64,000 bases of DNA, taken from NCBI GenBank assembly GCA_963842145.1, contig CAWJFJ010000012.1, positions 227,060 through 291,059 of the forward strand, given 5' to 3'. Of the stretch, positions 65 to 29,395 are shown one piece after another (the first letter of the stretch is position 1; every line of letters begins with the position of its first letter). Made by a program: the position numbers and the translations under genes. Below the pieces are notes generated by a model, which had not been told where the DNA came from, ran no database searches, and saw only the letters and a program-made list of their open reading frames with translations. Origin of the DNA: an uncultured Acidimicrobiaceae bacterium (lineage in GTDB: Bacteria; Actinomycetota; Acidimicrobiia; Acidimicrobiales; UBA8190).

Positions 65-275
65 GGAGTAGTGCGGGTGGCAAGGGGCTTCGGACCGTCC
101 GGGATTGCCGGTGATGCGCTACTTCCCGGCAGTCGATTGGCGGCTGGGCCGCACTATATTGCTCGCCGGTGGAGATCCTGAGCGGGTCGCCCATGGCCGG
201 TCCCCCCCGAATCCGGCGAAACCTGCCGGACACAGAGGCAGGAACCGGCCAGGCATATCAGCGAGTATCGAGCGT
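65..275 (+). repeat. Dispersed intergenic repeat, long-form copy D
   Basis: ATTGCCGGTGATGCGCT at 104-120, TATTGCTCG at 157-165 and GAGATCCTGAGCGGGTCGCCC at about 172-192. Aligns with 7318-7530 over about 170-210 nt at roughly 65-70% identity by eye. No convincing CDS overlaps it. Confidence 0.7.
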
Positions 276-355
276 CTTCGATCCCAACTTGTGTTCCCAA
301 CCTCCAACCGTCACCCGCATCTCGTGAGCACCACGACGCCTGGCGAAGCTCCCGG

Positions 356-1645
356 TTACCAGGGAAGCCCGGAGCCCCCGGCTGATCCGAAGAACCCTGC
401 GTCACCGAAGCTGAACACACCGCCATCGGCGCCGACCAGCCAGTACCCCAAATCACCGTGGGTGGCCGCAATCCCGACGATGGGGGCGGCGGGCCGGACC
501 CGCTCACCTGGAAGCGATCCGAGGAAGTGGGGCTTTGCTCCGCCCGGAGCCTTGACAGCGAAGACCCCACCGTCACCGGCCACGAACCAGGCTCCGTCAC
601 CGGTGGGTGTGACGGCGACACCGCTCACGAGGGAAGCGCGCACCACGGTGCCGATCGACAGCGTCCTGTTGCCGGTGTTGTGCACGTCCCCGTACCCGAT
701 AGCGGCGCCCAAGATCCCCGCTTCGTAGTAGCCGCCGCCGTCGGCGGTGGCTCCAAGGCCGACGAAGGGCTCGTCGGTGAGGCCAGTGGCGAGGTTGGCC
801 GGTTGGGGGGCCGAGCCCAGGAAGGGAGCGGCACCGAAGCTGAAGACGCCGCCGTCCTCGCCCAGGAGCCAGTAGCCACCGCCGGCCGGATCGGCGGTGA
901 TGCCGACGATCGTGTCGGCGGTGAGGGCGAGGTAGGGAGCGTCGGGTACGACGTGTTGCCCGGGCAACGAGCCGCAGAACTTGGCGTCACCGAAGCTGAA
1001 TACACCGCCATCGGCGCCGACCAGCCAGTACCCGCCCCCGTCGGTGGTGGCGGCGATCCCGACGATGGGGGCGGCGGGCACGACCCCTTCACCCGGCAGA
1101 GAGCCGTAGAAGTGGGCGTCGCCGTAGCTGAAGACCCCGCCGCCCGCCTGGGTCAGCCAGTAGCCCTTCCCATCCGGGGTGGGGGCGATCCCGACGAAGC
1201 GCGACGGCAGAGGGATCGTGACCGTGAAGGGCACGGACACGGTGATCTCGGAACTGGCGAAGTTGGACGTGTTGCAGGCCAGGGAGAACATGTAGTGACC
1301 GGCGGACACCGACGCGCCGGGAGGGGCATTGGGGGACCCGAGGACGCTTGGAATGACGAAGCGTTGGCTACCTCTACTCGCGTTGTATGGCAGGAGGGTG
1401 CCGCTGCTCCGCGCTTTCGCTGGCCCGAACTCCACGGGCCCACAGCCGTCGTTCGCCGGAGAGGAGAACGTCACGGTGACGACCGAACCGATCGACCCTG
1501 CGCTGGAGCTCACCGAGAGTCTCGGCGCAACCGTCGCTCCGGCAAGCGAAGGCACAACGATAACGGCTCCAGCAGCAATGGCTACCGTCCCGGCCACGAC
1601 CGTCGAGACACGAACCCACGCTGTCCTTCGACTTCTGGTCTTCAT
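356..1645 (-). CDS. Secreted or membrane-anchored repeat protein (N-terminal signal/TM, Ig-like segment, then about six GYWLVGADGGVFSFGDAxFxGS repeats; beta-propeller-like)
   Basis: ORF 356..1810. An internal ATG at 1645 gives MKTRSRRTAWVRVSTVVAGTVAIAAGAVIVVPSLAGA (basic N-terminus plus hydrophobic helix). The 40-50 aa repeat unit recurs about six times. Start choice is an inference. Confidence 0.75.
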   Translation of the reverse strand: MKTRSRRTAWVRVSTVVAGTVAIAAGAVIVVPSLAGATVAPRLSVSSSAGSIGSVVTVTFSSPANDGCGPVEFGPAKARSSGTLLPYNASRGSQRFVIPSVLGSPNAPPGASVSAGHYMFSLACNTSNFASSEITVSVPFTVTIPLPSRFVGIAPTPDGKGYWLTQAGGGVFSYGDAHFYGSLPGEGVVPAAPIVGIAATTDGGGYWLVGADGGVFSFGDAKFCGSLPGQHVVPDAPYLALTADTIVGITADPAGGGYWLLGEDGGVFSFGAAPFLGSAPQPANLATGLTDEPFVGLGATADGGGYYEAGILGAAIGYGDVHNTGNRTLSIGTVVRASLVSGVAVTPTGDGAWFVAGDGGVFAVKAPGGAKPHFLGSLPGERVRPAAPIVGIAATHGDLGYWLVGADGGVFSFGDAGFFGSAGGSGLPW

Positions 1646-1881
1646 GTCTGTTCCCCTCGTTGGCGACGCGCAACAAGCGGCGTCGAGATGGCAGATACGA
1701 CCTCGCCGCTTCCCAAGCAGCGCCCGTGATCCAGTCTTCTTCTCGGCAGTCCTTGGCGCAACGCGCAGGCCAGGTAGGGCCAAAAGCCCCCTGGTAACCC
1801 CCCCCGTCACCGCTGACCACTCAGACGGCCGGGTGCGGGAAGCTCAAAACAAGGTCAGTCACTACCGCCTGATGGCGACCG

Positions 1882-1906
1882 GGATCACTTCATATGTGGG
1901 TGATCC
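1882..1906. repeat. Left end site of the double-recombinase element (imperfect palindrome GGATCAC-N11-GTGATCC)
   Basis: GGATCACTTCATATGTGGGTGATCC. Its outer 14 nt, TATGTGGGTGATCC (1893-1906), are the exact reverse complement of 4255-4268. Confidence 0.75.
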
Positions 1907-1966
1907 ACCAGGCGGGATGACGTCACCGGCAGGGTGGAGCCTTCCCGATGGAAGGAGATCACCCAC

Positions 1967-3005
1967 ATGCCGCTCCAGTTATCAGTTGAGCGTTCTTTAG
2001 CTCCCTCGGGCGAGCAGGTCGTCCGACTCGGACACGAGCTTCTCGACGACTACCTGACGTTCCTCGCAGGCCGAGCCCGGCCAAACTCTGTCCTGGCCGC
2101 CGCCTTCGATCTGAAGGTGTTCTTCTGCTTCGTGCAGAAGGAACCGGCGCAGGTCACGAGCCGTGACGTGCTCAACTTCATCGGCGCCCAGCGAGCACCA
2201 CGGACGCAGACGAAGGTCGTGCGCATCTCCGATGGCGGATCGGGACTGTCGGCCCGGACGGTGGCCCGGCGGCTGTCGTCGATCTCGGGATTATTCGCCT
2301 ACCTGATTGTGCGCGGAGACGCCGGCGTGTCCACGTCGCCGGTGCCGAGGGGATTGATGACTCGCCGGGCCCGACGAAACAATGGGCGGGCGGCGCCGCT
2401 CGTGCGCACGCCGAAACTCCTGCCGAGAATCCTGCAGCCGCAGGAGGTTGACTCTCTGGTGGCTGCGCTGCGCACAAAGAGGGACAGGGGCCATGGTCGA
2501 GGCCATGGTCCTCGGTGGCCTGCGACGCTGCGAGGTGCTCGGTCTGCGGATGGCCGACCTCCAGATCGGTGAGCGCAAGGTGTTCATCGCCGACGGGAAA
2601 GGCGGACGCCAGCGCGTCGTTCCCATGTCGGGGCGGTTCTTTGCATCGGTGGCCCGCTATCTCAACGAGGAACGCCCCGCTGACGCCGTCACCGACGTGG
2701 TCTTCGTCGTGTTGAAGGGTAAGCGTCGGGGACAGCCGTTGTCGGCCTATGGGATCGACGAGATCCTCGAGTTGGCCAAGGAGCGGGCCGGCCTTGTCCA
2801 CGCCACGTGCCATGAGCTGCGCCACACGTGTCTCACGCGACTTCGTGAAGCGGGCATGGCTCTCGAAGCCGTGCAGGCCCAGGCCGGGCACGCCTCGATC
2901 GAGACCACCCGCCTCTATCTGCACCTGGCCGACGACTGGTTGGCCGGCGAGTACCGCCGGGCATCGGAAGCCATCGACGCCCAGGCCCTGGCGGTGGTCC
3001 GATGA
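1967..3005 (+). pseudogene. Tyrosine recombinase/integrase 1, frameshifted
   Basis: The N-terminal SAM-like domain is in the frame of ORF 1934..2572 and the catalytic domain (HELRHTCLT, GHASIETTRLYLH) is in the frame of ORF 2382..3005. The frames rejoin as LRTKRDR/AMVEAMVLGGLR if one G is removed from GGGG at 2487-2490. RBS GGAAGGAG precedes the ATG at 1967. Confidence 0.8.
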
Positions 3006-4237
3006 AGGCCCTTGCACACACGCATTCGGCGCCCTCTCTGTCCGAGACCATCGCGGCCTATCTGGGCCGAATTGTCGTTGTCTTTGCGGCCTCAAAGTGT
3101 GACCAGCTTCGGGAGCGACCTGAGGATGTTCGCCTTCTTTCTCGCCGACAACCATCCGGAGGTCCAGGGGGCCAGTGACCTCGAGCGCCGTCACATCGAG
3201 AGCTACAAGAGCCATATGGCCACCGCCACCGGAACCAAGGGCCGGCGCCTGGCCACGGCCACCGTCCGGCGGCGGCTGTCGACGCTGCGGATGTTCCTGG
3301 AACGCATCACGGAATGGGGTTGGGACGACGCCCCGCCCCGGGTGCTCATCTTCGCCGGGGATCTGCCCAAGTGCGACGAGCCGTTGCCCAAGTTCTTGGA
3401 CGACGCCCGCTTCGCCGCTTTCATGCGGGCAGCCAGGAGCGAACCCCGTCCCCTTCTGCGCCTGACCATCGAATTGCTGGCCGGACGGGCATGCGGGTGG
3501 GCGAACTGTGCGACCTCGAAGCCGACGCCACGGTGAAGATCGGCGACACCCACTGGCTGCGCATCCCGGTCGGGAAGCTCCACAACGACCGCTACATTCC
3601 GCTGCATCCCCAGCTCGTCGACATGCTCGAGGAGTGGTCGCATCACCCTGACTGCGGGGTGGGAGGCCGGCTGCTCAGCATCGAGGGTCGTCCGCTCAAC
3701 CGGCATGCCGTCACCCGCATGTGCGACCGTTGTGCGAAGAAGGCGGGCATCGGACACGTCCACCCCCATCAGTTGCGGCACACCGTGGCCACCCAAGCGG
3801 TGAACCGCGGCATGAGCCTCGAGGCCATCGCCGCCCTCCTCGGCCATCGTTCCATGTCCATGACGATGACCTATGCCCGCATCGCCGACCGGACCGTGGC
3901 CGACGAGTACTTCGCCGTGAGCGAGAAGGTCGAAGCTCTGTATGACAAGGCCCCCATCTTGTCGGCCAACGCCGAAGGTCCGAGCATGCGCCGTCTGCGC
4001 CGTGAGCACCACCGAATGCTCGGCAACGGCCTCTGCACCCGGCCTGTCGAACTCGATTGCGCCTTCGAGACCATCTGCGAGAGCTGCACCTACTTCGCCA
4101 CGTCTGTCGAGTTCCGTCCGACGCTGCGGCGACAGCTGAAAGACGCCACCCGCAAGGGCCAGACCGGCCGCCAGAAGCTCTTCAGCGGCCTTCTCGAGGG
4201 GATCGAAGGGGTGAAGGACCTCAAAGGCGAGCAATAA
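3002..4237 (+). pseudogene. Tyrosine recombinase/integrase 2 (Cys-rich C-terminal extension), at least two frameshifts
   Basis: The ATG at 3002 overlaps the upstream stop. Reading switches frame near 3065-3075 and again at GCCGG 3480-3484 (expected GCCCGG, giving ELLARTGMRVGELC). The catalytic part (HQLRHTVAT, GHRSMSMTMTYA) and the CxxxxxxCxxxxCxxC tail are in ORF 3314..4237. Confidence 0.75.
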
Positions 4238-4254
4238 TCAAGGATCAATCGGAC

Positions 4255-4280
4255 GGATCACCCACATAACACCCTGATTC
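4255..4280. repeat. Right end site of the double-recombinase element
   Basis: GGATCACCCACATAACACCCTGATTC. The first 14 nt are the inverted copy of 1893-1906, and the distal TGATTC resembles the TGATCC arm of the left site. Confidence 0.7.
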
Positions 4281-5575
4281 ATGATTGGGGCGGCGCTGGG
4301 CTTCGGTTCTAGCGTCTCGGGAGCTTGGCGGCCTGGCTCTGTAACACCCTGCCGCCTGAGGGTTGGCCTCAAGTAACGAAGTGTCAGCCGCCGAGTTCCT
4401 CGGCCACGGCGTGGCTCGAAAGAGGCGAGCAAGAACCGGTCTCATCAGGACTGCCCGACGTGGCTCCCACCAGCGACCAGGGAGGAACACGATGGTGCTC
4501 ATCGGCATCGATCCGCACAAGGCGACTCACACTGCGGTGGCGGTCGACACAGAAGAGACGGCACTGGCCGAGCTCACGGTGAAAGCAGACCGTCACCAGG
4601 TCGAGCGTCTCCTCAAATGGGCGATCGACTTTCCGGATCGACGCTGGGCCGTCGAGTCGGCCAACGGGCTCGGGTTCTTGTTAGCCCAGCAGCTCGTGGC
4701 TGCCGGCGAAGACGTCGTCGACGTCCCGCCCACCTTGGCGGCCCGGGTTCGGGTCCTCGGGTCGGGCAAGACGCAGAAGAACGACCGCAACGACGCCTTG
4801 TCCACCGCCATCGCCGCGATGCGGGCCAAGAGACTGCGCAACGTCGTGGCCGAGGACCACGGAGGCGTCTTGCGCCTGCTGGTGGATCACCATCACGACC
4901 TGGGGTCGCTGCGCACCCAGGCCGTCTGTCGGCTCCATGCCCTGGTGCGGTGCCTAATCCCAGGTGGGACGGGAGTTCGGCTCTCCCGCGGCCCGTGCGG
5001 CGGTTGTGCTGCGCAGTGTGCGACCGACCAATGCAGTGGACGTCGAACGCAAGCGCATGGCTCTTGGTCATGTGGCTGACATCAGACGTCTCGACGCCGA
5101 GATCGCCGCGTCCAAGGTCCGCATCGAGACCGCCGTGGCGGCCTCGGGCACGAGTGTGACCGAGCTCTATGGCGTCGGGCCGGTCGTGGCCGCCTTTCTG
5201 ATCGGCCACAGCGGCGACATGGCGCGGTTCGCCAACAGGGACCACTACGCCTCGTATAACGCCACGGCTCCTATCGAAGCCTCGAGCGGTCCGAGGGTGC
5301 GGCACCGGCTCAACCCCCGGGGCAACCGACGCCTCAACCACGCCATCCATGTGATCGCCATCTGCCAGATCCGCCACCCGACCGAAGGGCGGAAGTACTT
5401 CGATCGCAAGGTGGCCGAGGGCAAGACCACCAAGGAAGCGTTGCGGGCACTCAAGCGTCAGATCTCGAACGTCGTGTATCGCCAGCTGGTCATCGATTCC
5501 GGCAGGTGACATAGCGGACCCGGGAGGGCAAGTAGGGGCGACTCCTATGGCCAGCGCGACCGGCTCACACCCTGA
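4269..5575 (+). mobile_element. IS110-family element 1 (boundaries tentative)
   Basis: The transposase lies at 4492-5509. ACACCCTGA occurs at 4269-4277 and 5567-5575, which would delimit about 1.3 kb, a typical IS110 size. No terminal inverted repeats, as expected for this family. Confidence 0.4.
4492..5509 (+). pseudogene. IS110-family (DEDD) transposase, frameshifted
   Basis: The N-terminal part, MVLIGIDPHKATHTAVAVD...KNDRNDA, is in ORF 4363..5079. The C-terminal part, ...GVGPVVAAFLIGHSGDMARF...RLNHAIHVIA..., is in ORF 4964..5509. The frame changes near 4960-4972. RBS GGGAGGA precedes the ATG at 4492. Confidence 0.85.
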
Positions 5576-5842
5576 CACCGGCTCTTCAGTTCGGCCACTT
5601 CCCGGATCCAGCACAACGATACGTCCGGCCCCCGGCCGGCGCTTCAGCGCGCCCAAATGACCCCTCTTGACAGAAAGAGGCTTCGTGTTGGTATGGGCCA
5701 CGAGGGGTCACACCAGACCAGATCCTCGCCCCGCGACAGACTGCCCAAGGCGACCTCAGGCCGTCCGGTATCACCTCGGTGACCGGGCGCAATGTCGCCC
5801 CCGCCACCCAGCGATATTGATGATCCAGTGAGGCCCTGAGGA

Positions 5843-5938
5843 AGTCGTCGAAAGGTGCAACCACTCACAATCACGCGTCGCCGTCAATACAGTCGTCGAA
5901 AGGTGCAACCACTCACAATCACGCGTCGCCGTCGATAC
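5843..5938. repeat. Tandem duplication, 2 x 48 bp
   Basis: AGTCGTCGAAAGGTGCAACCACTCACAATCACGCGTCGCCGTC(A/G)ATAC at 5843-5890 and 5891-5938, with one mismatch. Confidence 0.95.
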
Positions 5939-5999
5939 AGCGCGGGCCGATCCCGGGTCGGCTCCAGAGGAACACTGGCACCTGTCGGATGGCCGGAGC

Positions 6000-7120: not shown

Positions 7121-7317
7121 AGCACCCTCCAAATTCCAAGGCGGATCCCCGATGTTGGCCGATTTGATGGCGGCGGTCCAGGTTATCCACCTGAGCGATA
7201 CCCCTGCCGGTGGTCGGGCGGGGCAGCCGGAGGACCCGGCCGGCGTCGAACGGCGAGCGACCGCCGGGCTTTCAAGCCTGGCCTGAGGACCTGAGAAGGA
7301 CCGATCGGTATTCGCGC

Positions 7318-7530
7318 GTGCGGGCAGGGCGCGTTCGGCTCGCACCCCATCCGCAACTGCCGATGATGCGCTCTTTCCCGCCCGTCAGTTGATCATCGGG
7401 GCCGCGCAGTATTGCTCGGCGCCGGCGATCCCGGGCGGGTCCACCCGATGGCCCGGCCCTCGAATCCAGTGCAATCTGTCGGACGCAGACGAAAACAGGG
7501 CCACGCATAACCCCGAATACCGCCCGTCGG
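7318..7530 (+). repeat. Dispersed intergenic repeat, long-form copy C
   Basis: AACTGCCGATGATGCGCT at 7355-7372 and GCGCAGTATTGCTCGGCGCCGGCGATCCCGGGCGGGTCC at 7404-7442. Homologous to 65-275, and 34 of 39 nt match 29357-29395. Possible hairpin CCGATGAT (7360-7367) with ATCATCGG (7392-7399). Confidence 0.75.
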
Positions 7531-7609
7531 TCCCTTGCCGTCGCTAGGGGATAGCGCTCCTTGCCCGGTCCGGCACATCTCGGAACGTGTGTTGGATGCC
7601 AGGCCGATT

Positions 7610-8134: not shown

Positions 8135-8418
8135 GGCGAGGCTGCCTTTCGCTAACGACAAATGGAGCATAAATCGCGCCCTCTTGGTCCATTGCCTGCC
8201 GAGGGACCGATAACGCCCGACGACACCGTAGCCTCGTCTCGTGATGGCTCGTCCAAGCACCCGAGGCCGTATCACCCGGACCCGGATGGCCACCGACGCT
8301 CGGTCCGCCGTGAGGTCGCCCTGGTCGCCATATTGGCAGCCCCACGGGTACCGCGTGGAAATGTTCAGCGCTTGGGCTCAAGTGGTGACCGCGACATCTC
8401 CTGACCCGGAGGTGTCAG

Positions 8419-9675
8419 ATGGAAACCCGAGGACGAAAGCGCCGCGCTAGTCAGTCGGATCTCGACGCGGCGGTCGAGGCGGTGCTCGCGGGAGCAAGCT
8501 ATAGGAGTGCCGAGGCGTTGACCGGGGTTCCTCAGTCGACGGTGAGGGACTACGTCTTGCGGTGGGGTTTCCTGCGACAGCGTGTTCCCCGGGGCGGCCC
8601 TAAGCGGGTTCTTGACGGGGTGGAGGTATCCACCTTCAGAACGGATCTGGGCGACGAGCGTGGGGCCATGACACGCGAACGCAAACGGCGCCCCGGCTCG
8701 CTCAGTGTGTCCGAGCGCGAGGAGGTCAGGGTCGGCATCGAGGTCGGAGAGTCCGACGAAGCCATCGCCGCCCGCATCGGCCGGCACCGCTCGACGGTCT
8801 GGCGTGAGATCGCGGCCAACGGTGGGCGGGGGCGCTACCGGGCAGCGGTGGCCGAGGAGCGAGCGGCGCCAGCCGCCCGACGGCCCAAGAACCCCTGGAC
8901 CGAGGAACGCCCCTGGCTGTGGGAGGAGGTCCAGGGACTGCTGCGCACCAAGAAGTGGTCGCCCGAGCAGATCGCCCACCGGTTCCGCAAGGAGCACCCC
9001 GACCAGCCAGAGTGGTGGGTGTCTCACGAAGCCATCTACCAGGCGGTCTTCGTCCAGGCGAAGGGCGAGCTGCGAAAGGAGCTCACCGCGTGCTTGCGCT
9101 CGGGCCGGGCTCGGAGACGTCCTCGCTCGCGAGCCTCCTCTGGACGAAGCGCAATCTTCGGGATGGTCAACATCTCCGAACGCCCCCCGCAGGTCGAAGA
9201 CCGAGCCGTGCCGGGCCACTGGGAGGGAGACTTGATCATCGGGGAGAGCGGCGCCAGCGCCGTCGCCACGTTGGTGGAGCGCACCACCCGCATGGGCATG
9301 CTGATCAAGCTCGAGAATCGCACCGCCGAACATGTCGCGTCGGCGGTAGCGGACAACATCGTGCATCTACCAGACCAGCTCGCCAAGTCCCTCACCTGGG
9401 ATCAGGGGATAGAGATGGCAACGCACGCCGCGTTCAAGGTCGCCACCGGCGTCCCGGTCTACTTCTGCGACCCCCATTCGCCCTGGCAGCGCGGGAGCAA
9501 CGAGAACTGGAACGGCCTCGTCCGTCAGTTCCTGCCCAAGGGCACCGACCTATCGGTCCACTCCCAAGAGGACCTCGACGCCATCGCCGCCCTGCTCAAC
9601 GAGCGTCCACGCAAGACCCTCGCATGGGAGACTCCAGCGGAACGATTCAACAGACTTGGCGCGGCCACTGCCTGA
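8419..9675 (+). CDS. IS30-family transposase (apparently intact)
   Basis: N-terminal HTH regions ([20 protein letters not shown]) and a DDE core with [18 protein letters not shown] and [23 protein letters not shown] could not resolve the inverted repeats of the element. Confidence 0.9.
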
Positions 9676-10045
9676 ATCTGCCGCGGTGGTGATCCCGGTC
9701 TAGTCACCGTCCGACCCGGATACCCGACTCCGACGCAATCCTCATTCCATCGATGGATGCACGAGGCTCGGGATCCCCGATTCTGCGCTGTCTTGGCCGA
9801 TCTTCGCCGTTGAACTCCACCCACCCGGGATCGGCACATCCAGCGCGCGACATCTGGATACAGGTTGCGAACGCAAATTGGAGTTATGGCGCGCACACGA
9901 GACTCGGTCAGGCCGCACACCGAGCCGTTATGCATCCGATAGCGACCGGCGTTCTCCTTCAGAGGATCGCTCAAGAACAGTTGATCTGTCCGCAGATCAG
10001 ATCTCTCTTCCTACGATTGGTCCCCTTCTCGAAGCTGGTTTGGCG

Positions 10046-12288
10046 TTAATCGTTTCGGGCGACCTCGGGCCCGGTGATCCGGTTGAGAAGCGGGAACGTC
10101 GAGGCGATGATCGCAAGCGAAGCAGCAAGTCCGCCTATGACGGTGGCCCAGTACGCAATTCCCGGGATTCGGAACGCGATGCCGACCTGGGAGTGGAGGT
10201 AGAGCCCAGCGGAAACCAGGCCGATCACGATCGACGCCGCGGCGACGAGAAGGAGCGGCAGCGCACTCTCCAGCGCGACGACGCGGTACAGGACGCCGGT
10301 GGAGACGCCAGTGAGCCTGAGCAGGCTGAACGGGCGCTTGCGCTCGCTCAACCCGGCTGCGATGTTCACGGCAAGGCTGCAGGCGGCGATGATCAGGCTC
10401 GCCACGATGATCACATCGGTCAGGTCCTGGATCATCGTGAGAAGGCGCGAGACGTCCGGCGTGTTCCCCTGGACCACCACCGGCGTTCCGCGGAAGGGAA
10501 AGGCCCGCTCGAGCGCGGTCCGTACCCGCTCGAGGGAGCTGGACGATCCGTCCGTGGCGACGACGACCGCCTCGGCGGGAAGATTCGCGATGCCCGCCAC
10601 CGACAGGTGAGCGGACGGCCAGACCGTCGATGAGGACGCCGAGTTGTTCCCAGTGACCGGCTGGAGGAAGTAGCCGATCGTCGCCACCGTCGCTCCCGGT
10701 GCGCACTTGCCGATCGCGGGCGTCTTCGCCAGCTGGTCGCACGCAACCAGCCCCTCCCCGTTCATCTGCTGAACAGGGGACGGGCCAACGTGGACCACCG
10801 TCACGCCGCGCACCCCTGGCGTCGGCGCGGAGCCCCGTGAGCACCTGGCCTGGGACAGAAGGAACTTCGTTGGAAGCGCCACACGAATTCGTGACTCCGC
10901 AGAGCTGGTCGTCGAGGGTTGCGGTGGACTCGGCGCTGCCTCCCTGAGAGCTGACGGCGACGATCGAGCTGAGCGCCCCGATCGCTGCGCTCGCGACGAA
11001 GAGGGCGAGCACGAGCCCACTGATCGAGCGGAAGGCCGCCCGAGGGTTGTCGAGGAGCCGGCGACCGGCGATGAGCGTAGCGGGCCGACGTGCCCGCTTG
11101 GCCATGAGTCGAGAGCCCATCTTGGTCAGCCACGGTCCGGCGAGGACCAGCCCCACCACGATGAGCACGAAGCCCACGAGCACCTCCAGAATCTGGCTGC
11201 CGTTGCTCTTCGGCTTGCCGGCGGCGTGCGAAGTACGCGAGCAGGGCGACGCCAGCCAGAAGTGGGATGATCCGGACGATCCGCGGCGGAGCAGACGAGG
11301 CTCGTCGGTTCACGCCGAGCGGCGAGATCTGGACGCGGCGGAGCGCGAGGCGCGCGGACACGACAGCGGCGATCGGGACGCCGATGACGACGAGTGCCAC
11401 GTCGATCCCCTGGAGCGAGAGGTCGCCCTGGGCGAACGGCAGTCCGGCGAAGGGGACGTGGACGAGCAGCGGCCGGAACAGGAAGAAGAGTGCGAACCCG
11501 ACCGCCACTCCCGCGAGGGCGGCGAACGTCGCCTCCACGGCTGCGATCACCGAGACCTGATGTGGCGTCGCCCCGACGAGGCGCATGGCGGCGAAACGCT
11601 CCTCTCGCCGCGCGGCGGACAGCCGGCTCGCCGTCGCGATCAAGATGAGCACGGGCAACAACAAGGCGACGGCTCCGCCCGCCAGGATCCACTTCAGAAC
11701 GGGTCCGCTCCCGACGCCGCTCTGGCAGGTGTAGCAGCTGCTCGGCGTTTGCTGAATGCCTCGGACCTCAACCGCCCCAGGGACCTGCGAGAGCTGGCGC
11801 GCGTCGTGGCCGATGACGATGATCAGCGAGTTCGGCGACGGAAGCGCCGCTGCGCCGATGGTCCCGATCTGGCGCCCGGGGAACCGGTCCCGCAGCTCGC
11901 TCGCCGGCACGGACGCGAGGAGACTCGTGAGGGCCGGCGATGCGTAGAACTCCCCCGGTCCGGGCAGGTGAGCAATCCCCGGCGGGATCGGTGCGCTCGG
12001 TCCGGTGGCGGCAACGTCGACGCGGTCGATCGACTGGTTGCCGAACTGGTCGACGCTGAGCAGCCACCACAGCCGGTCGGACGTCGAGCTGCTCGCGGTC
12101 GACGGAGGCGATTGCACCGAGGTGTCGAGCCACGCACCACGGTCGGTCTGGGCGTGCAGCCCGTTCATGCCGGCCAGGGCGAACAGCAGCAGACCGACGC
12201 CGAGGGCGACCGCAGCCGCGGTGACGAGGACACGTAGCGCCGCCTCGCGACCGCTTCCCAACGTCAAGCGCAGGCCGAGTCGGATCAT
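10046..12288 (-). pseudogene. ABC transporter permease with two FtsX domains, two frameshifts
   Basis: The protein reads across three frames (ORFs 10801..12288, 10011..11183 and 10046..11020), with junctions near 11225 and near 10830. Its ATG at 12288 overlaps the upstream ATPase stop (ATGA). Confidence 0.8.
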
Positions 12289-13567: not shown

Positions 13568-14139
13568 TCCCCGCCTGGCTGCAAACCGAGGCTTCCGCAG
13601 CTTGCCAAGCCTCGTCACCCGTAGCCGGTAGTCAACCTCCGCGGTGTCGGCGGGGTGATCGGACAGCCCTCTCCCCTCCGACCGGTCGCTGGAGGCGGTC
13701 CGCTCTATCGATCCGAGGGTCTCGTGCAGATCGGGGTGTTCGGGGCGAGCTTGTGATCCGACGCCGAAAGGAAGTACGGCTCGGAGATCTGCTTCGGCAG
13801 CGCATATTCGCGGCACAAGCCAACCTGCAAAGCCGGTCGCGACCGCTCGCACATGCCGGTGTTGCTCGGCCTGCCGGATGCGGCCCTCAGAGCCGGGGTG
13901 AGCGGTATCGCTCCGGGCCGTGATTATAGGCGGGTCGGCCGGAGGCATAGCGCTCGCCTCCGGCACATCCAGATCGGGCCAGTCGATACACTCTCGGCGC
14001 AAACGGCGACGTCGGGCGCTTCGTCTGAGGGGATCTCAGGTCCCACTCGGGCCGGTAGCGTGCCGACGGTGAGCACAATAGGAGCAGAGGACCACCGCGC
14101 GAGGGCGGGTCACCGGAGCCCGGGTCTGCTTCGATCGAG

Positions 14140-14865: not shown

Positions 14866-15280
14866 GGCACCAAAATGTCGATCGTGGCGCTTTGGCATCG
14901 TGATATCGCAATCTCAGTCGGGAGACGAGGGCACGATGGTACTCAAGCGACACGAGGGCACCGAGATGCCGGTCTGATTCGGGTTCGGGCCAAGTCTCCA
15001 CAATGAGAGATGGGTAAACGGCCGCCGGCTCCTCGATCGGTGTGAGGAGTTCGTGTTTGGCGAAAATCGTCATTCGGAGTGGGTCCGGTCCGTTGATCAG
15101 CGGAAGTTGCAGGACGGCCAACGCCAGTTGTAAACGCTGATCGAAAAGGGGAGCACCTGAGACTCAGAACGCGCTGATCGAAAAGGGGAGCACCTGACCA
15201 TCCCCGTGCTTGCTCGATCCCATTCACAGGCTTCTGGCCTGGGAGTCGAGCGAGTGGACGGGAGAAGGGTGCACACCGAC

Positions 15281-16771: not shown

Positions 16772-17575
16772 AGTCCCTCGAAACCAAGTCCATGGTGCTG
16801 TTGCACCACCATCTGAAAGCCCTCCGGCTGCCGACCATCGGAGCCGAGTGCGAGAAGGTGGCCAGCCAGGCGGCCACCGACAACGTCGACCACCTGGCCT
16901 ACCTGCTCCAGCTCACCGAGTTGGAGCAGGCTCGAACGGGAGCGGAGAGCGGCCGAGCGTCGCTTGAAGGCAGCTCGGTTCCCCACCATGAAGACACTGG
17001 AGAACTTCGACTTCGCAGCCCGCCCGTCGGTGAACAAAATGCTGGTCGCCGAGCTGGCCCGGTGCGAGTTCATCGACAAGCGCGAGAACGTGCTGCTGGT
17101 CGGAAACCCGGGCACCGGCAAGTCCCACTTGGCCACCGCCCTCGCCGCGGCGGCGTGTGCCAAGGGCTACAAGGTGCGGTTCTTCCGGGCCACCGAGCTG
17201 GTGACCACGTTGATCGAGGCCAGGGACGAACGCGGCTTCCTGCGTCTAAAGAGTCAGCTCGCCAAGTTGGACCTGCTCGTGCTCGACGAGCTGGGCTACG
17301 TGCCCGCGTCCAAGGTCGGCGCCGAGCTGCTCTTCGACGTCATCTCCACCGCCTATGAGCGGACCAGCCTGATCGTGACCACCAACCTGCCCTTCGAGTC
17401 CTGGACCGAGGTCCTCGGATCCGAGCGCCTTACTGGGGCCACGCTCGACCGGCTCACCCACCGGTGTCGGATCATCGAGACCAAGGGAGAGAGTTACCGG
17501 CTCACCGACGCCAAGACTCGGGCCCGCCGGACAAAGCCAGTCACGGATGTGGACGAGGCTCAGGCCGCCAAGTAG
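16768..17575 (+). pseudogene. istB: IS21-family helper ATPase IstB, frameshifted
   Basis: MKSLETKSMVLLHHHLKALRLPTIGAE...LTELE is in one frame, then LEREREAAERRLKAARFPTMKTLENFDF...GNPGTGKSHLA...LVLDELGY in the frame of ORF 16964..17575. The frame changes near 16925-16932. Confidence 0.85.
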
Positions 17576-18554: not shown

Positions 18555-19034
18555 GTGGATGCTCCGCCGATCCGGGGGGTGAATGGCCCAGCATCGGGTC
18601 ACCAGTCAGCCTCTGACCGGGATTTCGTCCCCAGGGCCGCTCGCCCGACCAGGCGATCCCTGCCGGTTCCTGAACCGCCCCGGGATCCACGGAGACTCTG
18701 ACCAGGCCGCACTCACACGGCATCACGTCTCGCCCGGTCCAGGACATGTTGCGCTCAGAAACGGCTATGGGCGCTGCATTTGAGAAGGGACGTATCCCAG
18801 ATCTGTCGGATTTGCGTAGGTAGCGCCGTTGCTACGAACGCGATGCGGGCTGCCCAAATGAGCCGATTTTGAGTTTGGGTTCACGCGACGCCGGATCGCT
18901 ACAGATCGGGCTGGATAGCGGTGCGCTCCTAGAACCCCTGGGTCGGGAGCCGATCTCATGTTCGAGCGGTTCGTCTTCTCGCCGGCACCGCCCGTTTCCG
19001 TTGTCGCTACCTCGGGCGTGTCAGTAGGGTCCGG

Positions 19035-20321: not shown

Positions 20322-20489
20322 GTCATCGCCTCACCCTGGTATGGAGTCGGTGACCACGACCTCGGCGACCGGATGTCGACGTTCGGTCAGGCACGGCGGC
20401 ACCTGAGATTCGGGTGTCCGGGCTCTGTTGGTGCCCTTCAGCCCAAGAGTCTTAGGCTGGCGGTCACACGACCCGCAAGAGGAGGAGCA

Positions 20490-21964: not shown

Positions 21965-22630
21965 GTGCGCTTTCATGCTGAGCACCGCTTCAATGGGTCG
22001 AAGGAAGCCGTCGCGGCGCTCCTGGCCGATCCCGCCTTCTACGTAGGCCTCGCCCTCCCCGACCTGAGCAAGCCCGAGGTGCTCGAAAAACGAAAGGACG
22101 GAGACGACGCCATGCTGTGGCTCCGGTACGAATTCGTAGGGAGCCTCGATCCGATCGGGCGCCGTCTGCTTGGCTCGGGCCACCTGGCGTGGATCCAGGA
22201 GGTGCGGATCGACCGGTCGGCGGGCTCCGGCGCTCTCCGCTTCGAGGCTGAAAAAGACCCGAGGCAACTGTACGGTGCAGCCGACTTCGTCCTCGCCGCA
22301 ACCGGAGGCGGAACTGTTCGGCGTCTCGACGGCGAACTGGTTGTGGCGGTGCCGGGCATAGGTCGCATGGCTGAGCGACGGATCGTTCCCGCGCTCCTGC
22401 GCCGACTGGACATCGAGGCTCAGGCCTCGACGACCAGCTGCGGCGAGGAGGATGAGCTCGGAACAGGTGGCGGTCTTCGCTTACGGCATTCATCTCTGCC
22501 CCGAGCGAGGGCGTCCAGGATCGCTGCAGGAGAGCGGGGAACCCATGCCGCCCACCCGGCGACCCGTTGTGTTCCGACTTCGCCACGGAATTTCGGGAAC
22601 ACGAGATCGCTCGAAGTCGTGGACCGTTGA
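21965..22630 (+). CDS. DUF2505/SRPBCC-like protein (C-terminus doubtful)
   Basis: MRFHAEHRFNGSKEAVAALLADPAFY... The last 60 or so residues are low-complexity. A one-base shift near 22425 would end the protein as AQALDDQLRRGG-stop near 22452. Confidence 0.55.
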   Translation: MRFHAEHRFNGSKEAVAALLADPAFYVGLALPDLSKPEVLEKRKDGDDAMLWLRYEFVGSLDPIGRRLLGSGHLAWIQEVRIDRSAGSGALRFEAEKDPRQLYGAADFVLAATGGGTVRRLDGELVVAVPGIGRMAERRIVPALLRRLDIEAQASTTSCGEEDELGTGGGLRLRHSSLPRARASRIAAGERGTHAAHPATRCVPTSPRNFGNTRSLEVVDR

Positions 22631-22635
22631 CCGAT

Positions 22636-22722
22636 CGGAACTGCCGGTTGTGCTCGGGTCTCAGCGGGTCAGGCGTGATCGAACCTGAGCAGTATCACTC
22701 AGGGGGCGGATGATCCCGGTCG
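22636..22722 (+). repeat. Dispersed intergenic repeat, short-form copy A
   Basis: GGAACTGCCGGTTGTGCT from 22637, GCAGTATCACTCA at 22689-22701 and GATGATCCCGGTCG at 22709-22722. Block spacing is 53 nt. Confidence 0.65.
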
Positions 22723-22911
22723 ATTTGCACCCGTTCCACCTGACGAGTCGACTGCATCACTGGCACTTTCCGGCCCTTTATTGCGGCTCTCATCGACCAA
22801 CAGATACGACATCTAGGTTCGGCGGGACGCGGACAGGAACGGACCCTACGCCCTGACCCCCCGGCCGGAGGGGGAGTTTATGAGCACCACAGGCGCAAGG
22901 CTCGGTTTGAG

Positions 22912-23394
22912 TCAGAGCTTGTAGCCGATAGACCGCAGCAGCGCCGTGCGCTCGGTCACGTCGTCCTCAGTCTCCACACCCACAGGGGTTGAGCCGTCGA
23001 TGACCCCCAGGATTCCCCGTCCGAGTTCGGTCTCGGCCACCACAACCTCCACGGCGTTGGCCGTCGCGCAGTAGATGCTGCAAACTTCAGGGACCAACTT
23101 GAGCTGGTTGAGAACGTTCAGTGGGTAGCCTTCGCGAAGCAAAACGACGAAACAGTGGCCCGCCCCGATGGCCCGAGCGTTTCGGACGGCGAGCTCGACC
23201 AGATCTTCATCGTTGCCCGAGCGCCGGACAAGGCATTTCCCTGACGCTTCGCAGAATCCAAGCCCGAAACGTAGGTGCGGGCTCGTACACACGAGGGCTT
23301 CGTGGATATCTTCGACGGTCTTCACAAAGTGGGCTTGTCCGAGGACGACGTTCAGGTCCTGGGGCTTTTCGATCGGAATGACGTGCAGGTCCAT
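22912..23394 (-). CDS. Adenosine-specific kinase family protein
   Basis: IEKPQDLNVVLGQAHFVKTVEDIHEAL, FCEASGKCLVRRSGND, ATANAVEVVVAETELGRGILGVIDG and the LRSIGYKL end, as in the roughly 160-aa family. Confidence 0.75.
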   Translation of the reverse strand: MDLHVIPIEKPQDLNVVLGQAHFVKTVEDIHEALVCTSPHLRFGLGFCEASGKCLVRRSGNDEDLVELAVRNARAIGAGHCFVVLLREGYPLNVLNQLKLVPEVCSIYCATANAVEVVVAETELGRGILGVIDGSTPVGVETEDDVTERTALLRSIGYKL

Positions 23395-24101: not shown

Positions 24102-24168
24102 ATACTGCCGGGTCCTTCTCGGGGCGGGGAAAGGCGCCGCCAGGTCGAGACGCTCGGGATCACTCACG
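24102..24168 (+). repeat. Dispersed intergenic repeat, short-form copy K
   Basis: ATACTGCCGGGT at 24102-24113 and GGGATCACTCACGG at 24156-24169. Block spacing is 54 nt. It ends 72 nt from the GNAT stop codon. Confidence 0.6.
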
Positions 24169-24960: not shown

Positions 24961-25584
24961 GGACCCTACGCGGAGCGGTGGGGATCTTCCAGGTGCTGCT
25001 CGCCGACCCCGCCCACCGATGTGGGAGCACCCCCCAGGCGACTCCCGTCACCCTCGTCTTTCTGCCTGCCGACGAAGAGTCGCTACGTACGCGAGGGCCA
25101 CCCCGGCGTCTGGTGGAAATTAGCTCCACGCCCCCCTAGCGTCGGGGTGACCTCCGTGTACCGTCCGCCCCTGGTCGCCACGCAGGGCGTATGTCGACCC
25201 CCAGTATGCGCTTCTGAACAGAGAAAGGGGTACTGGTGGGTAACTTTCTCGCATCGCCCGGAGCGGTGGTCGCACGGGCCCGGCGAACCACAGCGCCAGC
25301 CGTGCTTGCTCCAGTTGCCGCTCGAACCTGCCGGGTTGTTCGCTCCATGGCGGAGGACGACTCGCTCAGTCGCCGCCTCAGCACCGGGTTACCGGCATCA
25401 GGCATTTCCCGGTCACGTAGATCGGCCGTTCGAGACGCCCAGGTCCGGCGGGGTCGCTGGGGCACAAGGAGGCCTCGTCCTGCCATGAGATTGCTGCCAA
25501 GGCGAACGCGGACCTTTGGTCCTTTGCCACGATGCCTCGCGTCCTATGGTGCATTTGTCACCGCACCGATGCGGGAGGAGACCG

Positions 25585-27039: not shown

Positions 27040-27123
27040 GCACAGGAGCACCTACCACAAAGTCCCGTCACCTTCGATGGATCGAGTTTGCTCGACCGTC
27101 GCCCGATCCGAATTGCCGGTTCT

Positions 27124-27140
27124 GCGCGCTCCCAGCGCGC
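27124..27140. terminator. Hairpin between convergent genes (GCGCGCT-CCC-AGCGCGC)
   Basis: Perfect 7-bp stem at 27124-27130 and 27134-27140, between the WS/DGAT stop (27039) and the GH1 stop (27227). No U-tract. Confidence 0.4.
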
Positions 27141-27226
27141 TCCCTTCAACCTTCCCACCCGCCCCATACCCCCCCGTGCCCAGCCGGTGCGACTTTCTAG
27201 AATAGTGCCGTCGGCCTCCCCGATGG

Positions 27227-28430
27227 TCAATGCTTGACCTTTCCGAGCTCGTTCGTGCGCGCCACGTTCCCGTACCACGCCGCGCTTGGCTTGGCTTTGC
27301 GCTCGAACGTCGTTCGGTCCACCGAATGCAGTCCCAGTTTGGGGCCGTAACCCATGTTCCACTCGAAGTTGTCGAGAAGGCTCCATACGAAGTAGCCGCG
27401 CACGTCGATCCCCTCGGCGATGCAGGCGTGGACACCGCGCAACGCCTTGTCGAGGTAGGCGATGCGCTCGACGTCGTCCTCCGTTGCGAGCCCGCTCTCT
27501 GTGATGAGTACGGGCAAGCCGGTGAATTCGGCCGTGCGCCGCACACAGTGTTGGACTGCCTGTGGCCAGTTCTCTGTGCCCATCTGTGTCTGCCCCACCG
27601 ACGGATCATCGGGGGCGAGTCCCTCAGGCCCGAAGTGCATGCGGGTGTATGCCTGCACGCCGACAAAATCATCGCCTTCCGCGGCACGCAAAAAGGTGTC
27701 CTCGAGAATATCCTCCGCCAAGTCGCGTGTGGCCTCGCCACCCTCCTCGGCCACGATCTCAGCCATCGACAGTGTGAGCCCGACCGGGTAACTGCCGGGT
27801 CCTGACCGGAGCGCCTCGACGGAGAGCCGGTGGGCACGCGCCATCGCATCGTTCACCGCGATGTGGCGGACCAAGTCGTCCTTCACCCCCGGTGGATAGT
27901 CCCCGATGGTGTAGCCCATGGCCCCGATCACATTGGGTTCATTGATAGTGCAGGCCCAACCGATCAGATCCCCGAGATACGCCCCAGCGCGTTCCACGAA
28001 CCGGGCGAACCGGTCAGGGGCGTCGGGCGCCTCGAAGCAGCGCGCGCGCTGCGAGCCATGACGGGCTCGTGAAGTGGTGGAACGTGACCACCGGGACAAT
28101 GCCGCTCTCGTGGCACTCGGCACACATCCGTCGGTAGTGCTCCAATGCCGCCACCGAGAATTCCCCCTCAGCCGGCTCGATGCGGCTCCATTCCAGGGAA
28201 AAGCGGTAAGCACCGAGACCCATGCTGACAACCAAGTCAAGGTCCTCTGGCCACCGATGGTACGAGTCACAGGCGTCCCCGCTCGACTCGGCGCATCGTG
28301 AATCCCTAGCGTGCTCGAAGGCCCACCAGTCATTGTTCGTGTTTCCGCCCTCGATCTGGTGGGCGGCGCCGGCCGCCCCCCACAAGAACCCCTCAGGGAA
28401 CTCGAGGGCCTGGCCTTCATCTGTCGCCAT
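27227..28430 (-). pseudogene. GH1 beta-glucosidase, frameshifted
   Basis: The N-terminus, FPEGFLWGAAGAAHQIEGG...TFHHFTSPSW, is in ORF 28014..28430. The remainder (TINEPN, ITESG, LLDNFEW) is in ORF 27227..28465. The frame changes near 28040. Confidence 0.85.
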
Positions 28431-28682
28431 GAGGGCTCATCGTAGCGACGACTCAGACACCGCAAGCTGGCCGACTACGCGAACACGCCCCTGTCCTTCT
28501 ACAGGGCGGATTGGCCTGCCCGGCTCGCGTTGACCGCCCGGGAGGCACATACGGGAAGTACGGGCGCCCAGTCGTCGTTACCTCACTCATTCAAGACCGA
28601 CCGTCGCCTCCACAGCTGGCGAGCGTCTCGGTCGGCGGCCCAGTTGAGACCGCACCTTCAGGCTGACGTCAAGCCGATACCG

Positions 28683-29132
28683 TTAGGAGGTCTCGGTCGG
28701 CACGGTCGGTTCGGGGTGACCGAAAATCACTTCGCCCGTGATCGGCCGCACGAGGTTCGCTAGGTCCGATACGACGTCCATGAGGAGATCGTCAACCGTC
28801 AGCATTCCGACCATGCGCCCCTCCTCCACCAAGGGAAGCCGCCGGAAGGCGTGGTCGGTGAAGATCCGCACGGCTTCCCGAAGGTCCGCGGTGGCACCGA
28901 GCGTCACGACCCTGGTGGACATCACGGCATCCACCCGGCTGTCTGAAGGGAGCCTCCGTGCGAGTGCTCGTACCACGAGGTCGCGGTCGGTCACGATCCC
29001 AATTGGCTTCTCATCGTCGACTATGACAACGGCGCCCACCGCCGCCTCGTCCATGAGCTTCCCCACCTCCGCCAGGCTGCGATCTGCTGGCACCGTCACT
29101 GGCACCTTCCTGCTCGCGTCCTTCGCCCGCAT
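28683..29132 (-). CDS. CBS-domain pair protein
   Basis: Two CBS-like repeats (VGAVVIVDDEKPIGIVTDRDL and RRLPLVEEGRMVGMLTVDDL). ATG at 29132 behind AAGGAGG. Confidence 0.8.
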   Translation of the reverse strand: MRAKDASRKVPVTVPADRSLAEVGKLMDEAAVGAVVIVDDEKPIGIVTDRDLVVRALARRLPSDSRVDAVMSTRVVTLGATADLREAVRIFTDHAFRRLPLVEEGRMVGMLTVDDLLMDVVSDLANLVRPITGEVIFGHPEPTVPTETS

Positions 29133-29304
29133 CTCGACCTCCTTGCTGGCTCTCAACGTGACACTACGCTCAGCTTCGCAGCTTTCGTAGGGCCGAACGT
29201 CACGACGCACCGACGTTCGACCTTCTCATTCGCGGTGAAGACGCTCGGTCAGACCAGGCGGTATCGCCGCTCTTCCGTTGCACTACATCGTCAAGCCGAC
29301 CGCT

Positions 29305-29395
29305 CGGAACTGCCGGTGATATGCCGGGTGTCACGGGCGAGAAGGAGGCCAGGGCAGCGCAGTATCACGCGGCGCTAGCGATCCCGGGCGGGTCC
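29305..29395 (+). repeat. Dispersed intergenic repeat, short-form copy B
   Basis: CGGAACTGCCGGTGAT from 29305 and GCGCAGTATCACGCGGCGCTAGCGATCCCGGGCGGGTCC at 29357-29395. Block spacing is 54 nt. Confidence 0.7.

Follow-up and report, generated by a model that had tools for sequence, protein, structure and literature searches.

The genome of an uncultured Acidimicrobiaceae bacterium contains a real and previously undescribed family of dispersed intergenic repeats. We found it in a stretch of 64,000 nucleotides (hereafter the window; GenBank assembly GCA_963842145.1, contig CAWJFJ010000012.1, positions 227,060 to 291,059; G+C content 59-70%), which holds about 11 copies, 10 on the plus strand and one on the minus strand, all within its first 37.6 kb. 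The copies recur about once per 3-4 kb over the first 37 kb, and the remaining 26 kb are free of them. We favor, with moderate confidence, the view that the family is a non-autonomous, lineage-specific dispersed repeat acting at the DNA level, of the kind to which MITEs (miniature inverted-repeat transposable elements), repetitive extragenic palindromes (REPs) and BOX elements belong. It is probably an unusual version of an established kind of element.

The motif AYTGCCGR occurs 12 times on the plus strand of the window, and at exactly five of these sites (starts at 104, 7356, 22640, 24104 and 29309) it is followed 53 or 54 nt later by KATYRC, as an initial annotation of the window had read them. 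Five such pairs on the plus strand and none on the minus strand compare with a mean of 0.02 in 200 dinucleotide shuffles. The likeness between the copies at 65 and 7318, previously estimated by eye, proved strong in local alignments of 230-nt regions (z = 33 against shuffles), and further pairs among the copies at 65, 7318, 22600 and 29270 reached z = 17 (7318 with 29270), 12 (22600 with 29270), 10 (7318 with 22600) and 9. A repeat finder independently grouped 146-194, 7399-7447 and 29352-29400 at 73-84% identity. The copy at 24104 gave no significant pairwise alignment with the other copies (z < 2), and its profile E-value was 2.6; we kept it as a copy because it possesses the correct spacing and shows the same junction behavior at an orthologous site.

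An initial profile was built from four good cores and a subfamily-A profile was made later, both for use with nhmmer. Profile scanning, which the initial annotation had proposed, yielded further copies in the window, in metagenome contigs and in metagenome-assembled genomes (MAGs) of Acidimicrobiales. It also sorted the weaker candidates listed earlier for the window. The one at 13853 is a real copy (E = 5e-5), and so is that at 37595 (37516-37614, E = 1e-8), on the minus rather than the plus strand. At 27109 the 5' block is present (E = 0.016) with nothing beyond it, and 9815-9955 turned out to be the 3' end of a 5'-truncated copy (9685-9850) that lies on the plus and not the minus strand. 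The candidates at 18650 and 1872-1936 were noise (profile E = 30 and 16). Two copies had escaped notice, 29443-29600, in tandem with 29291-29435, and 5806-5992. The earlier statement that no copy lies within a convincing coding sequence extends to the larger set: among 77 hits, overlap with a predicted gene (codon-usage gene caller) never exceeds 60 nt.

The unit is modular, and alignments divide it into subfamilies A to D that are set apart by their internal segments. It starts with a semi-conserved resident motif, GACCGnTCGGAAY, that runs into the core TGCCGG (block 1). The interior then opens with GGTGATGCGCT or GTGATGCGCT, followed by about 35 nt of subfamily-specific sequence whose length is kept, by block 2 (GTATYRCTC or GTATYRCTCGGCGG) and, 17 nt after KATYRC, by block 3 (GGTGATCCCGGRCGGGTC). 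In the long A-type copies (those at 65 and 7318 and the majority of those elsewhere), about 110 nt more lead up to CCCCGAGTAYSG, a part that is skipped in the short types (22600, 29270, 13841 and 37614). Whatever their type, copies tend to finish with about 45 nt of loose conservation, closed by the terminal motif GGCACwTyyCGG, which contains the reverse complement of the core. A-type copies carry in addition a 5' leader that looks as if the block-1 region had been duplicated and had then diverged. We considered and rejected a second junction at the 3' end of the A-type (CCCCGAGTAYSG), as the likeness runs on for another 75 nt or so, through a tail that evolves faster and has GGCACwTyyCGG at its end. 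The copies of the window are collected in Table 1, where L-numbers denote fetched loci or contigs, from genome assemblies or metagenomes; L202 derives from a relative of the window organism in the same sample.

Table 1. Copies of the repeat family in the window, with the evidence for each and its landmarks
Position	Strand	Type	Evidence	Landmarks and surroundings
56..340	+	A-type, full-length	nhmmer, subfamily-A profile, E = 5.5e-55; z = 33 vs 7318	Block 1 ATTGCCGG 104-111; block 2 TATTGC 157-162; GATCC 174; degenerate terminal motif near 316-335; about 20 nt from stop (356) of convergent gene 356-1810 (-)
5806..5992	+	D-type	80% identical to L202 interior at site orthologous to 7318	Degenerate block 1 ATTGATGATCC; block 2 CAATCAC; terminal motif CTGGCACCTGTCGG
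7300..7590	+	A-type, full-length	nhmmer E = 1.8e-50	Block 1 ACTGCCGA 7356-7363; block 2 at 7410; terminal motif CCGGCACATCTCGG 7573-7587
9685..9850	+	A-type, 5'-truncated	nhmmer 9683-9741, E = 2.7e-4; sequence reading	Begins with GGTGGTGATCC (block 3), directly after right end (9682) of IS30-family element
13841..13988	+	C-type, short	nhmmer E = 4.8e-5; 80% identical to L202 9982-10095	Order CATGCCGG ... GTATCGC ... GTGATTATAGGCGGGTC ... CCGGCACATCCAGATCGG
22622..22785	+	B-type, short	nhmmer E = 1.6e-25 (training member); z = 12 vs 29270	Block 1 at 22640; TATCAC 22693; terminal motif CTGGCACTTTCCGG 22770-22783; 5' motif overlaps stop codon of DUF2505 gene; member of different subfamily at equivalent place in L202
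24092..24235	+	Strongly diverged	Correct block-pair spacing; profile weak (E = 2.6)	Block 1 ACTGCCGG 24104-24111; GATCAC 24158
27094..27143	+	Solo 5' motif and block 1 (CGCCCGATCCGAATTGCCGG)	nhmmer E = 0.016, profile positions 4-36	No recognisable element interior
29291..29435	+	B-type, short	nhmmer E = 2.9e-25 (training member); z = 17 vs 7318	Block 1 at 29309; TATCAC 29363; terminal motif GCGGCACGTCTCG 29419-29431
29443..29600	+	Diverged, tandem with 29291..29435	nhmmer E = 4.9e-4 (29455-29556)	
37470..37621	-	B-type, only minus-strand copy	nhmmer E = 1.3e-8 and 1.2e-9; both exact patterns match	About 40 nt past stop of plus-strand gene 37013-37474

The distances between the blocks are held more firmly than the sequence that fills them. 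Among 37 non-redundant copies, block 1 and block 2 stand 53-54 nt apart in 28, and GATCC follows block 2 at 17 nt in 31; this spacing is kept even where the intervening sequence is unalignable, as in the copies at 22600, 29270 and 24104 and in the L202 copy. The orthologous copies downstream of the repeat-protein gene 356-1810 in the window and in L156 allow a comparison with coding sequence. Identity is 68% in the element region; in the gene itself it amounts to 73% at third codon positions and to 88-94% at first and second ones. Blocks 1 to 3 are nearly invariant in this pair. Since the blocks hardly change and the remainder lies close to third-position identity, the blocks and their spacing are evidently constrained, and the rest of the element drifts at about the neutral rate.

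The comparison of the window with L202 bears on how these units behave. The two contigs share only two segments of homology, which are collinear and in the same orientation, one with the Rv2632c-like and kinase genes (91% identity; window 24111-22858) and one with the MDMPI gene (96%; window 7362-6628). Both end on one side within block 1, the first after ACTGCCGG (24111, the last base of the block) and the second after ACTGCCG (7362). At 7362 the 5' motif is part of the conserved flank, with 20 of 20 positions identical. To the right of this point, the window carries an A-type interior that is 86% identical to the L163 and L147 copies, whereas L202 carries a D-type interior, 80% identical to window 5822-5990 and with a 54-nt spacing to AATCAC; the genes beyond differ as well (PNPOx vs DUF1059). 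Interiors and the next genes (GNAT vs others) likewise differ at 24111. In a third, independent case, L154 against L174 and L140, identity is 90% over the interior and 2.3 kb of downstream sequence, and to the left of the break (the slash in ...G/CCGG) the flanks are unrelated. Homology thus breaks at the same 2-3 nt of the core in three of three comparisons, with flank identities of 84-96%. The breaks fall in block 1 although conservation is no lower in block 3. At orthologous sites the 5' motif is thus retained next to interiors from different subfamilies, and since the swapped interiors each have close relatives elsewhere (86% and 80%), they have been replaced and have not diverged in place. 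Judged from these alignments, TGCCG/G is a junction across which related genomes combine flanks and interiors independently of each other. Insertion into a palindromic REP-like target was also considered; no intact palindrome centered on GCCGGC was found.

In the sequences searched, the family was found only in some uncultured Acidimicrobiales of peat soil. A first three-block pattern, run against 185,579 species genomes (596 Gb), was too loose and had more than 110 chance matches among those listed; the profile confirmed four genome loci among the matches listed (L027, L032, L036 and L108), each from the MAG of a different species assigned to Acidimicrobiales or Acidimicrobiaceae. In metagenome contigs, a tighter pattern of 30 nt gave 69 loci, nearly all of them true members. 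These contribute at least 57 non-redundant copies from peat and soil, which have 180-230 nt in common. The window organism itself is represented by contigs of 99.9-100% identity in several JGI and Logan peat and soil metagenomes, and the closest NCBI homologues of the window proteins are labelled 'Acidimicrobiales bacterium'. Nine hits in viral contigs matched the pattern only and included no family member, and searches of plasmids and phages gave no match. In our search of the literature we found no description of such repeats in Acidimicrobiales.

Among close relatives the distribution is patchy. We compared the window with contigs from genomes whose adenosine-kinase homologues are 94, 91, 88 and 87% identical to that of the window. 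Copies are present in the 94% relative (L202) and absent from 20 kb each of the 91, 88 and 87% relatives and from 17 and 12 kb of two more distant genomes, so that about 90 kb sampled from five related genomes are without any copy. Empty sites were sought via contigs with adenosine-kinase and MDMPI homologues and none was recovered; the contigs retrieved came from the same strain, from a relative with members of another subfamily or from family-less relatives with poor synteny. Among the chance matches to the loose pattern, many are exactly 81 nt long and stem from Sphingomonadales and other Proteobacteria (L017, L030, L031, L070, L082-L084 and others) and do not match the profile; they may reflect a conserved gene or RNA of the Proteobacteria.

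With respect to neighboring genes, the elements follow no single rule. The upstream gene is oriented opposite to the element in 26 cases and in the same direction in 24, and for the downstream gene the counts are 32 and 22. A cis-regulatory leader of one gene family was rejected as an explanation, the flanking genes being unrelated and on either strand. The initial annotation had placed the ends of several copies shortly before the stop codons of minus-strand genes; this is correct for several window copies (with the tail counted, about 20-25 nt separate the end of the element from the stop at 356 or 7610) and does not extend to the family as a whole. Adjacent copies, by contrast, are co-oriented in a ratio of 13:1 (seven contigs), with flanking genes on both strands, and are separated by segments of 1.5-9 kb with several genes on both strands. 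The single switch of orientation in the window falls between 29.6 and 37.5 kb, near a weak change in GC skew; across loci, skew and orientation are weakly linked (26 vs 14). The near-uniform orientation could stem from strand-specific, replication-linked insertion or from directional recombination.

The first 37 kb of the window, in which the copies lie, are rich in genes of mobile elements (two tyrosine recombinases, two IS110, one IS30 and one IS21), and the last 26 kb (38-64 kb) contain housekeeping genes, e.g., for a cytochrome bd oxidase. In L202, an insertion sequence (IS) of the IS110 family sits inside an A-type copy directly after CCCCGAAT, and the rest of the copy resumes beyond it; here the copy was therefore the target and not a part of the IS. 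IS110 homologues were found in a few loci and were not adjacent to copies. We rejected the possibility that the repeats are orphan IS110 bridge-RNA genes or ends, since the region upstream of the IS110 gene at 33240-34238 reached a profile E-value of only about 0.1. The IS30-family element of the window (about 8350-9682, plus strand) encodes a transposase (8419-9675) with 88% amino acid identity to that of L195; its right end, set by 90% homology with L195, abuts the truncated copy, whose sequence begins with block 3. Each of the two tyrosine recombinase genes is divided between two frames (1934-2572/2382-3005 and 3012-3536/3314-4237), and the same frames are present in independent Illumina contigs. 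Their products reach 65 and 33 bits, where the cut-off for integron integrases is 265 bits, remain far below the cut-offs of all NCBIfam models and give weak hits to models of tyrosine-type DNA invertases. No recombinase was consistently linked to copies among the loci scanned, and RAYT, TnpA(Y1) and TnpB were all missing from the proteins scanned in the window and near copies.

How could such a repeat work? If the family consists of non-autonomous DNA elements, its blocks would be recognized by a transposase or recombinase with sequence specificity, which would cut or join at the core. The conserved blocks would then be putative protein-binding sites, and blocks and spacing would stay constant while the sequence between them drifts because the blocks bind protein. 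Effects on neighboring genes, for instance through a terminator-like hairpin on the opposite strand, are possible by-products. Of the options that the initial annotation had offered without choosing between them, namely a REP- or MITE-like repeat, a 3' untranslated region (UTR) or terminator structure, a small-RNA family and recombinase target sites, the first is the best supported: the family is multi-copy, confined to intergenic DNA, built of modular subfamilies and patchy among relatives, its interiors are replaced at orthologous sites, and ISs are nested in copies.

Several observations weigh against this interpretation. Mobility is something we infer, since neither an empty site nor an excision product nor identical copies at two loci of one genome were seen. 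Terminal inverted repeats (TIRs) are absent in general: over 33 copies, the best inverted match of the 18-nt 5' motif scored 7.3, compared to 7.0 for a direct control and 6.8 for shuffles, and only the L202 copy at 10005-10110 has a good inverted repeat of 15-16 nt at its two ends. Co-variation between the 5' motif and the terminal motif was also tried and discarded, with scores no better than those of controls. No target-site duplication (TSD) was found in the one copy with clear ends that was examined. There is no consistently linked transposase gene at the copies in the loci scanned and no autonomous parent, as the IS110, IS30 and IS21 elements of the window and the loci have no ends in common with the family. 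Cut-and-paste MITEs are not usually so strongly co-oriented, and the junction evidence comes from three comparisons of metagenome contigs. As signs that one strand may matter, finally, one hairpin pair covaries (U-A 8, C-G 7, U-G 5), and six proposed pairs are mainly G·U on the sense strand.

These last points lead to an alternative in which the repeats would be a structured RNA family, made from the sense (window plus) strand or contained in neighboring transcripts, with the conserved blocks as helices and loops and spread of the DNA as a secondary matter. Such RNAs might be small or antisense RNAs that face the 3' ends of convergent genes, or modules of 3' UTRs and terminators. We devised by hand a nested structure (TGCC-GGTGAT-GCGC / GCGC-ATYRCT-GGCA, an inner hairpin, and GGYGATCC / GGGTCRCC) and scored it over the copies. 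Its helices pair in 81.7% of cells, compared to 80.7% in shuffles (a value reached by 9 of 500), cells changed on both sides number 17 against 6.3 (reached by 1 of 500), and the covariation score is 0.141 against 0.128 (reached by 20 of 500). The helix between block 1 and block 2 pairs in 93% of cells on the sense strand and in 57% on the opposite strand, because the degenerate Y and R of block 2 face G and U of GGUGAU; in addition, RNAalifold on the first seven copies favors the plus strand (-9.5 vs -2.4 kcal/mol). These results together hint at the sense strand being read as RNA or single-stranded DNA. The structure, however, was drawn from the same sequences on which it was scored, and relatedness alone can beat shuffles without any structure; we therefore take these figures as a hint and not as proof.

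Measures of folding speak against the RNA interpretation. Relative to dinucleotide shuffles, the folding of single copies has z = -0.8 to -1.2 whichever strand is taken; averaged over 37 copies, z was +0.26 in the variable spacer and, in the core, -0.39 (plus) or -0.55 (minus). RNAalifold gave almost no consensus structure on the larger sets (-0.6 kcal/mol on 14 copies, -1.1 kcal/mol on 37). A stable hairpin of RNA or single-stranded DNA was rejected on these grounds, folding being no better than in shuffles on both strands. The self-complementary segments 7360-7367 and 7392-7399, pointed out earlier, do exist and are peculiar to that one copy. In 32 of the 54 cases that could be scored, the 3' ends of the element and of a convergent gene face each other, and the opposite strand of the A-type 3' part shows a GC hairpin followed by TGTCTTCCTCT, a terminator-like arrangement that could serve convergent genes where there is one; the orientation relative to genes is nonetheless mixed. 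Neither a consensus promoter at the 5' side nor a U-rich terminator on the sense strand was found in the copies. Rfam gave no hits at the gathering score in the window and only noise, hence no hit at E = 10, for two copies searched at E <= 10. Replacement of the interior by that of another subfamily at orthologous sites would not be expected of a gene-specific RNA. The many sense-strand G·U pairs thus stand against mixed orientation, folding at the level of shuffles and modest covariation; the 3' UTR, terminator and small-RNA options gain weak support, and we regard a structured RNA family as unlikely.

We consider it still less probable that the repeats are dedicated sites of site-specific recombination, similar to the attC sites of integrons or to res and cer sites, in which a crossover core at one end adjoins accessory sequence for protein binding; crossover would take place in TGCCGG between direct repeats. 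Gene blocks between two sites would be excised and re-inserted, and accessory genes would be shuffled within a plastic region. Several features fit this idea: all three breaks fall in the same 2-3 nt, with the conserved side on the left or on the right and different genes beyond, and the window and L202 are collinear in the order Rv2632c-like/kinase, variable segment, MDMPI, their variable segments differing in content and being bounded by copies. The 13:1 co-orientation is what excision, as opposed to inversion, needs; the block spacing, which at about 53 bp spans some five turns of the helix and otherwise measures 17 bp, is kept over unalignable sequence, and the region abounds in recombinase and transposase genes. 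These genes, however, include no recombinase that is consistently linked to the family, no recombination product was observed, and the tyrosine recombinases of the window are split and score far below the integron-integrase cut-off. The attC hallmarks RYYYAAC ... GTTRRRY are absent, and the segments between copies are 1.5-9 kb long, with several genes on both strands. A single crossover leaves unexplained why the interior next to a conserved block differs as well (22600 vs L202 10005-10110), and the junctions are three in number, all in metagenome contigs. The recombinase-target-site option of the initial annotation thus has partial support, from the breaks at TGCCG/G and the co-orientation, and lacks a recombinase tied to the family.

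In a more specific form of this idea, which we rate lower again and regard as speculative, the repeats would serve as attachment sites for a so far undescribed system of cassette shuffling in Acidimicrobiales. Crossover in the TGCCGG of co-oriented sites would be the work of a recombinase guided by sequence or by RNA, and multi-gene blocks as well as repeat interiors would be excised, exchanged and re-inserted. IS110-family enzymes, which are frequent in the contigs and of which one is inserted in a copy, would be the candidates. The outcome would be an integron-like exchange of genes without an integron integrase or attC sites, and a circular junction, if formed, would join the 3' end of the interior to GGTGATGCGC.

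That the units are invertons, whose interior between TGCCGG and CCGGCA..T..CGG is flipped by an invertase to switch promoters or terminators beside many genes, is very unlikely. Many copies do have the terminal motif with CCGGCA at a constant distance, one has an inverted repeat of 15-16 nt, and there are weak hits to DNA invertase models; against this, inverted-repeat scores over 33 copies do not exceed those of controls, no contig has an inverted interior, no promoter consensus lies within the copies, and interior swaps and synteny breaks would stay unexplained. An artefact of chance or composition in a GC-rich genome is hardly credible, for although short CCGG-rich motifs are common and the loose pattern had its more than 110 chance hits in 596 Gb, such an artefact does not account for five block pairs against 0.02, E-values down to 1e-61, z up to 33 and 57 non-redundant copies that share 180-230 nt.

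Further features of the window and the fetched loci deserve mention. Genes for IS110-family ('RNA-guided') transposases are frequent (window 4266-5697, plus strand, and 33240-34238, minus strand; L202 5456-7225; L204 12348-13378); the IS110 copy at 4363-5509, whose limits follow from 88% homology with L158, is split over two frames. An IS21-type istA/istB pair lies at 15206-17575 (plus strand), and the two tyrosine recombinase genes, Xer-like and arranged in tandem, occupy 1934-4237 (plus strand). Two insertions interrupt contigs that are otherwise 99.5-99.9% identical, one of 148 nt and richer in AT (L135 2768-2915, compared to L193 and L133) and one of 1.1 kb (L199 4071-5191, compared to L155 and L138); both are other small mobile elements that are unrelated to the repeat family. 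Within the D-type copy of the window, the repeat finder detected a near-perfect (98%) tandem duplication of 48 nt at 5843-5938, AGTCGTCGAAAGGTGCAACCACTCACAATCACGCGTCGCCGTC[A/G]ATAC.

The gene at 356-1810 (minus strand) is an open reading frame (ORF) of 484 amino acids with internal DNA repeats of 110-148 nt (383-1209) and without a match in Pfam or NCBIfam; its L156 homologue is 81% identical and is followed by a family copy as well. Directly after the stop codon of the adenosine-kinase gene, about 65 nt (22858-22915) are conserved at about 90% with L202 and include the hairpin CCCCCTCCGGCCGGGGGG, which is probably the terminator of this gene; on the opposite strand, GGAGG precedes a 14-codon ORF that is probably fortuitous. 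Direct repeats of the 79-91% identity range at 31630-31700 and 50222-50292 correspond to the EAL domains of two GGDEF-EAL proteins, and short ones of the same range at 20357-20400 and 56623-56666 lie inside paralogous genes. Cumulative GC skew climbs to about +0.10 by 20-26 kb, after which it drops to -0.29; the change at 24-26 kb, near the switch in copy orientation, could mark a replication terminus or the boundary of an island.

The family shares traits with several known kinds of bacterial repeats and is a strict member of none. Like MITEs such as the Correia elements of Neisseria, it is small (150-300 nt), non-coding, multi-copy (about 11 copies in 37 kb and 57 elsewhere), strictly intergenic, divided into modular subfamilies and patchy in its occurrence; both are also often found near gene ends and may contain hairpins of terminator-like form. 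It differs from them in that it has no general TIR, no detected TSD and no known parent IS, in the co-orientation of its copies, and in the position of its sharp junction, which coincides with the inner boundary of the conserved 5' motif rather than with an outer terminus. With REPs and bacterial interspersed mosaic elements (BIMEs), with REP doublets (REPINs) and their RAYT transposases and with the IS200/IS605-derived palindrome-associated transposable elements (PATEs), it has in common that it is intergenic, GC-rich and abundant and showed neither general TIRs nor a TSD. Elements driven by HUH/Y1 enzymes show a strand or orientation bias along the chromosome, and REPs are preferred landing sites of IS110-family elements, a preference matched by the IS110 within the L202 copy. 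In contrast to REPs and REPINs, however, the unit is 150-300 nt long and not a palindrome of 20-40 nt or a doublet of such, and its hairpins are not above shuffles.

Enterobacterial repetitive intergenic consensus (ERIC) sequences, also called intergenic repeat units (IRUs), of enterobacteria and the BOX elements of pneumococcus resemble the family in size (100-300 nt), in imperfect long-range complementarity and in modularity (boxA-B-C). They too combine conserved blocks with variable parts, are non-coding, have no known mobilizing enzyme and may affect flanking transcripts. Their sequences and host phyla are unrelated to those of the family, and both ERIC and BOX occur in both orientations; to our knowledge, no fixed junction of flank exchange has been described for either. 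The attC and res or cer sites are likewise co-oriented and non-coding, 60-200 bp long, with constrained block spacing and a position at the border between conserved and exchanged gene blocks; their crossover lies at one end, where the family has its mapped homology breaks. Unlike attC, the family has no AAC/GTT core and no integron integrase, and its ends read GACCGnTCGG..TGCCGG and GGCACwTyyCGG; it bounds long multi-gene segments, its copies are spread over many contigs, and its interiors are themselves exchanged.

Acidimicrobiales are abundant in peat and soil and almost uncultured, and we know of nothing that has been established about their repeat content and genome plasticity. Should the family be an ordinary MITE-like element, it would be of local interest only. 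If TGCCGG is a true crossover site, it would represent a new system of site-specific recombination or transposition, for which candidate enzymes and target sequences are in hand. A dense repeat at synteny breakpoints would help to explain contig breaks in Acidimicrobiales MAGs, and the repeat would provide a marker for strain typing and a tractable case of the exchange of accessory gene blocks.

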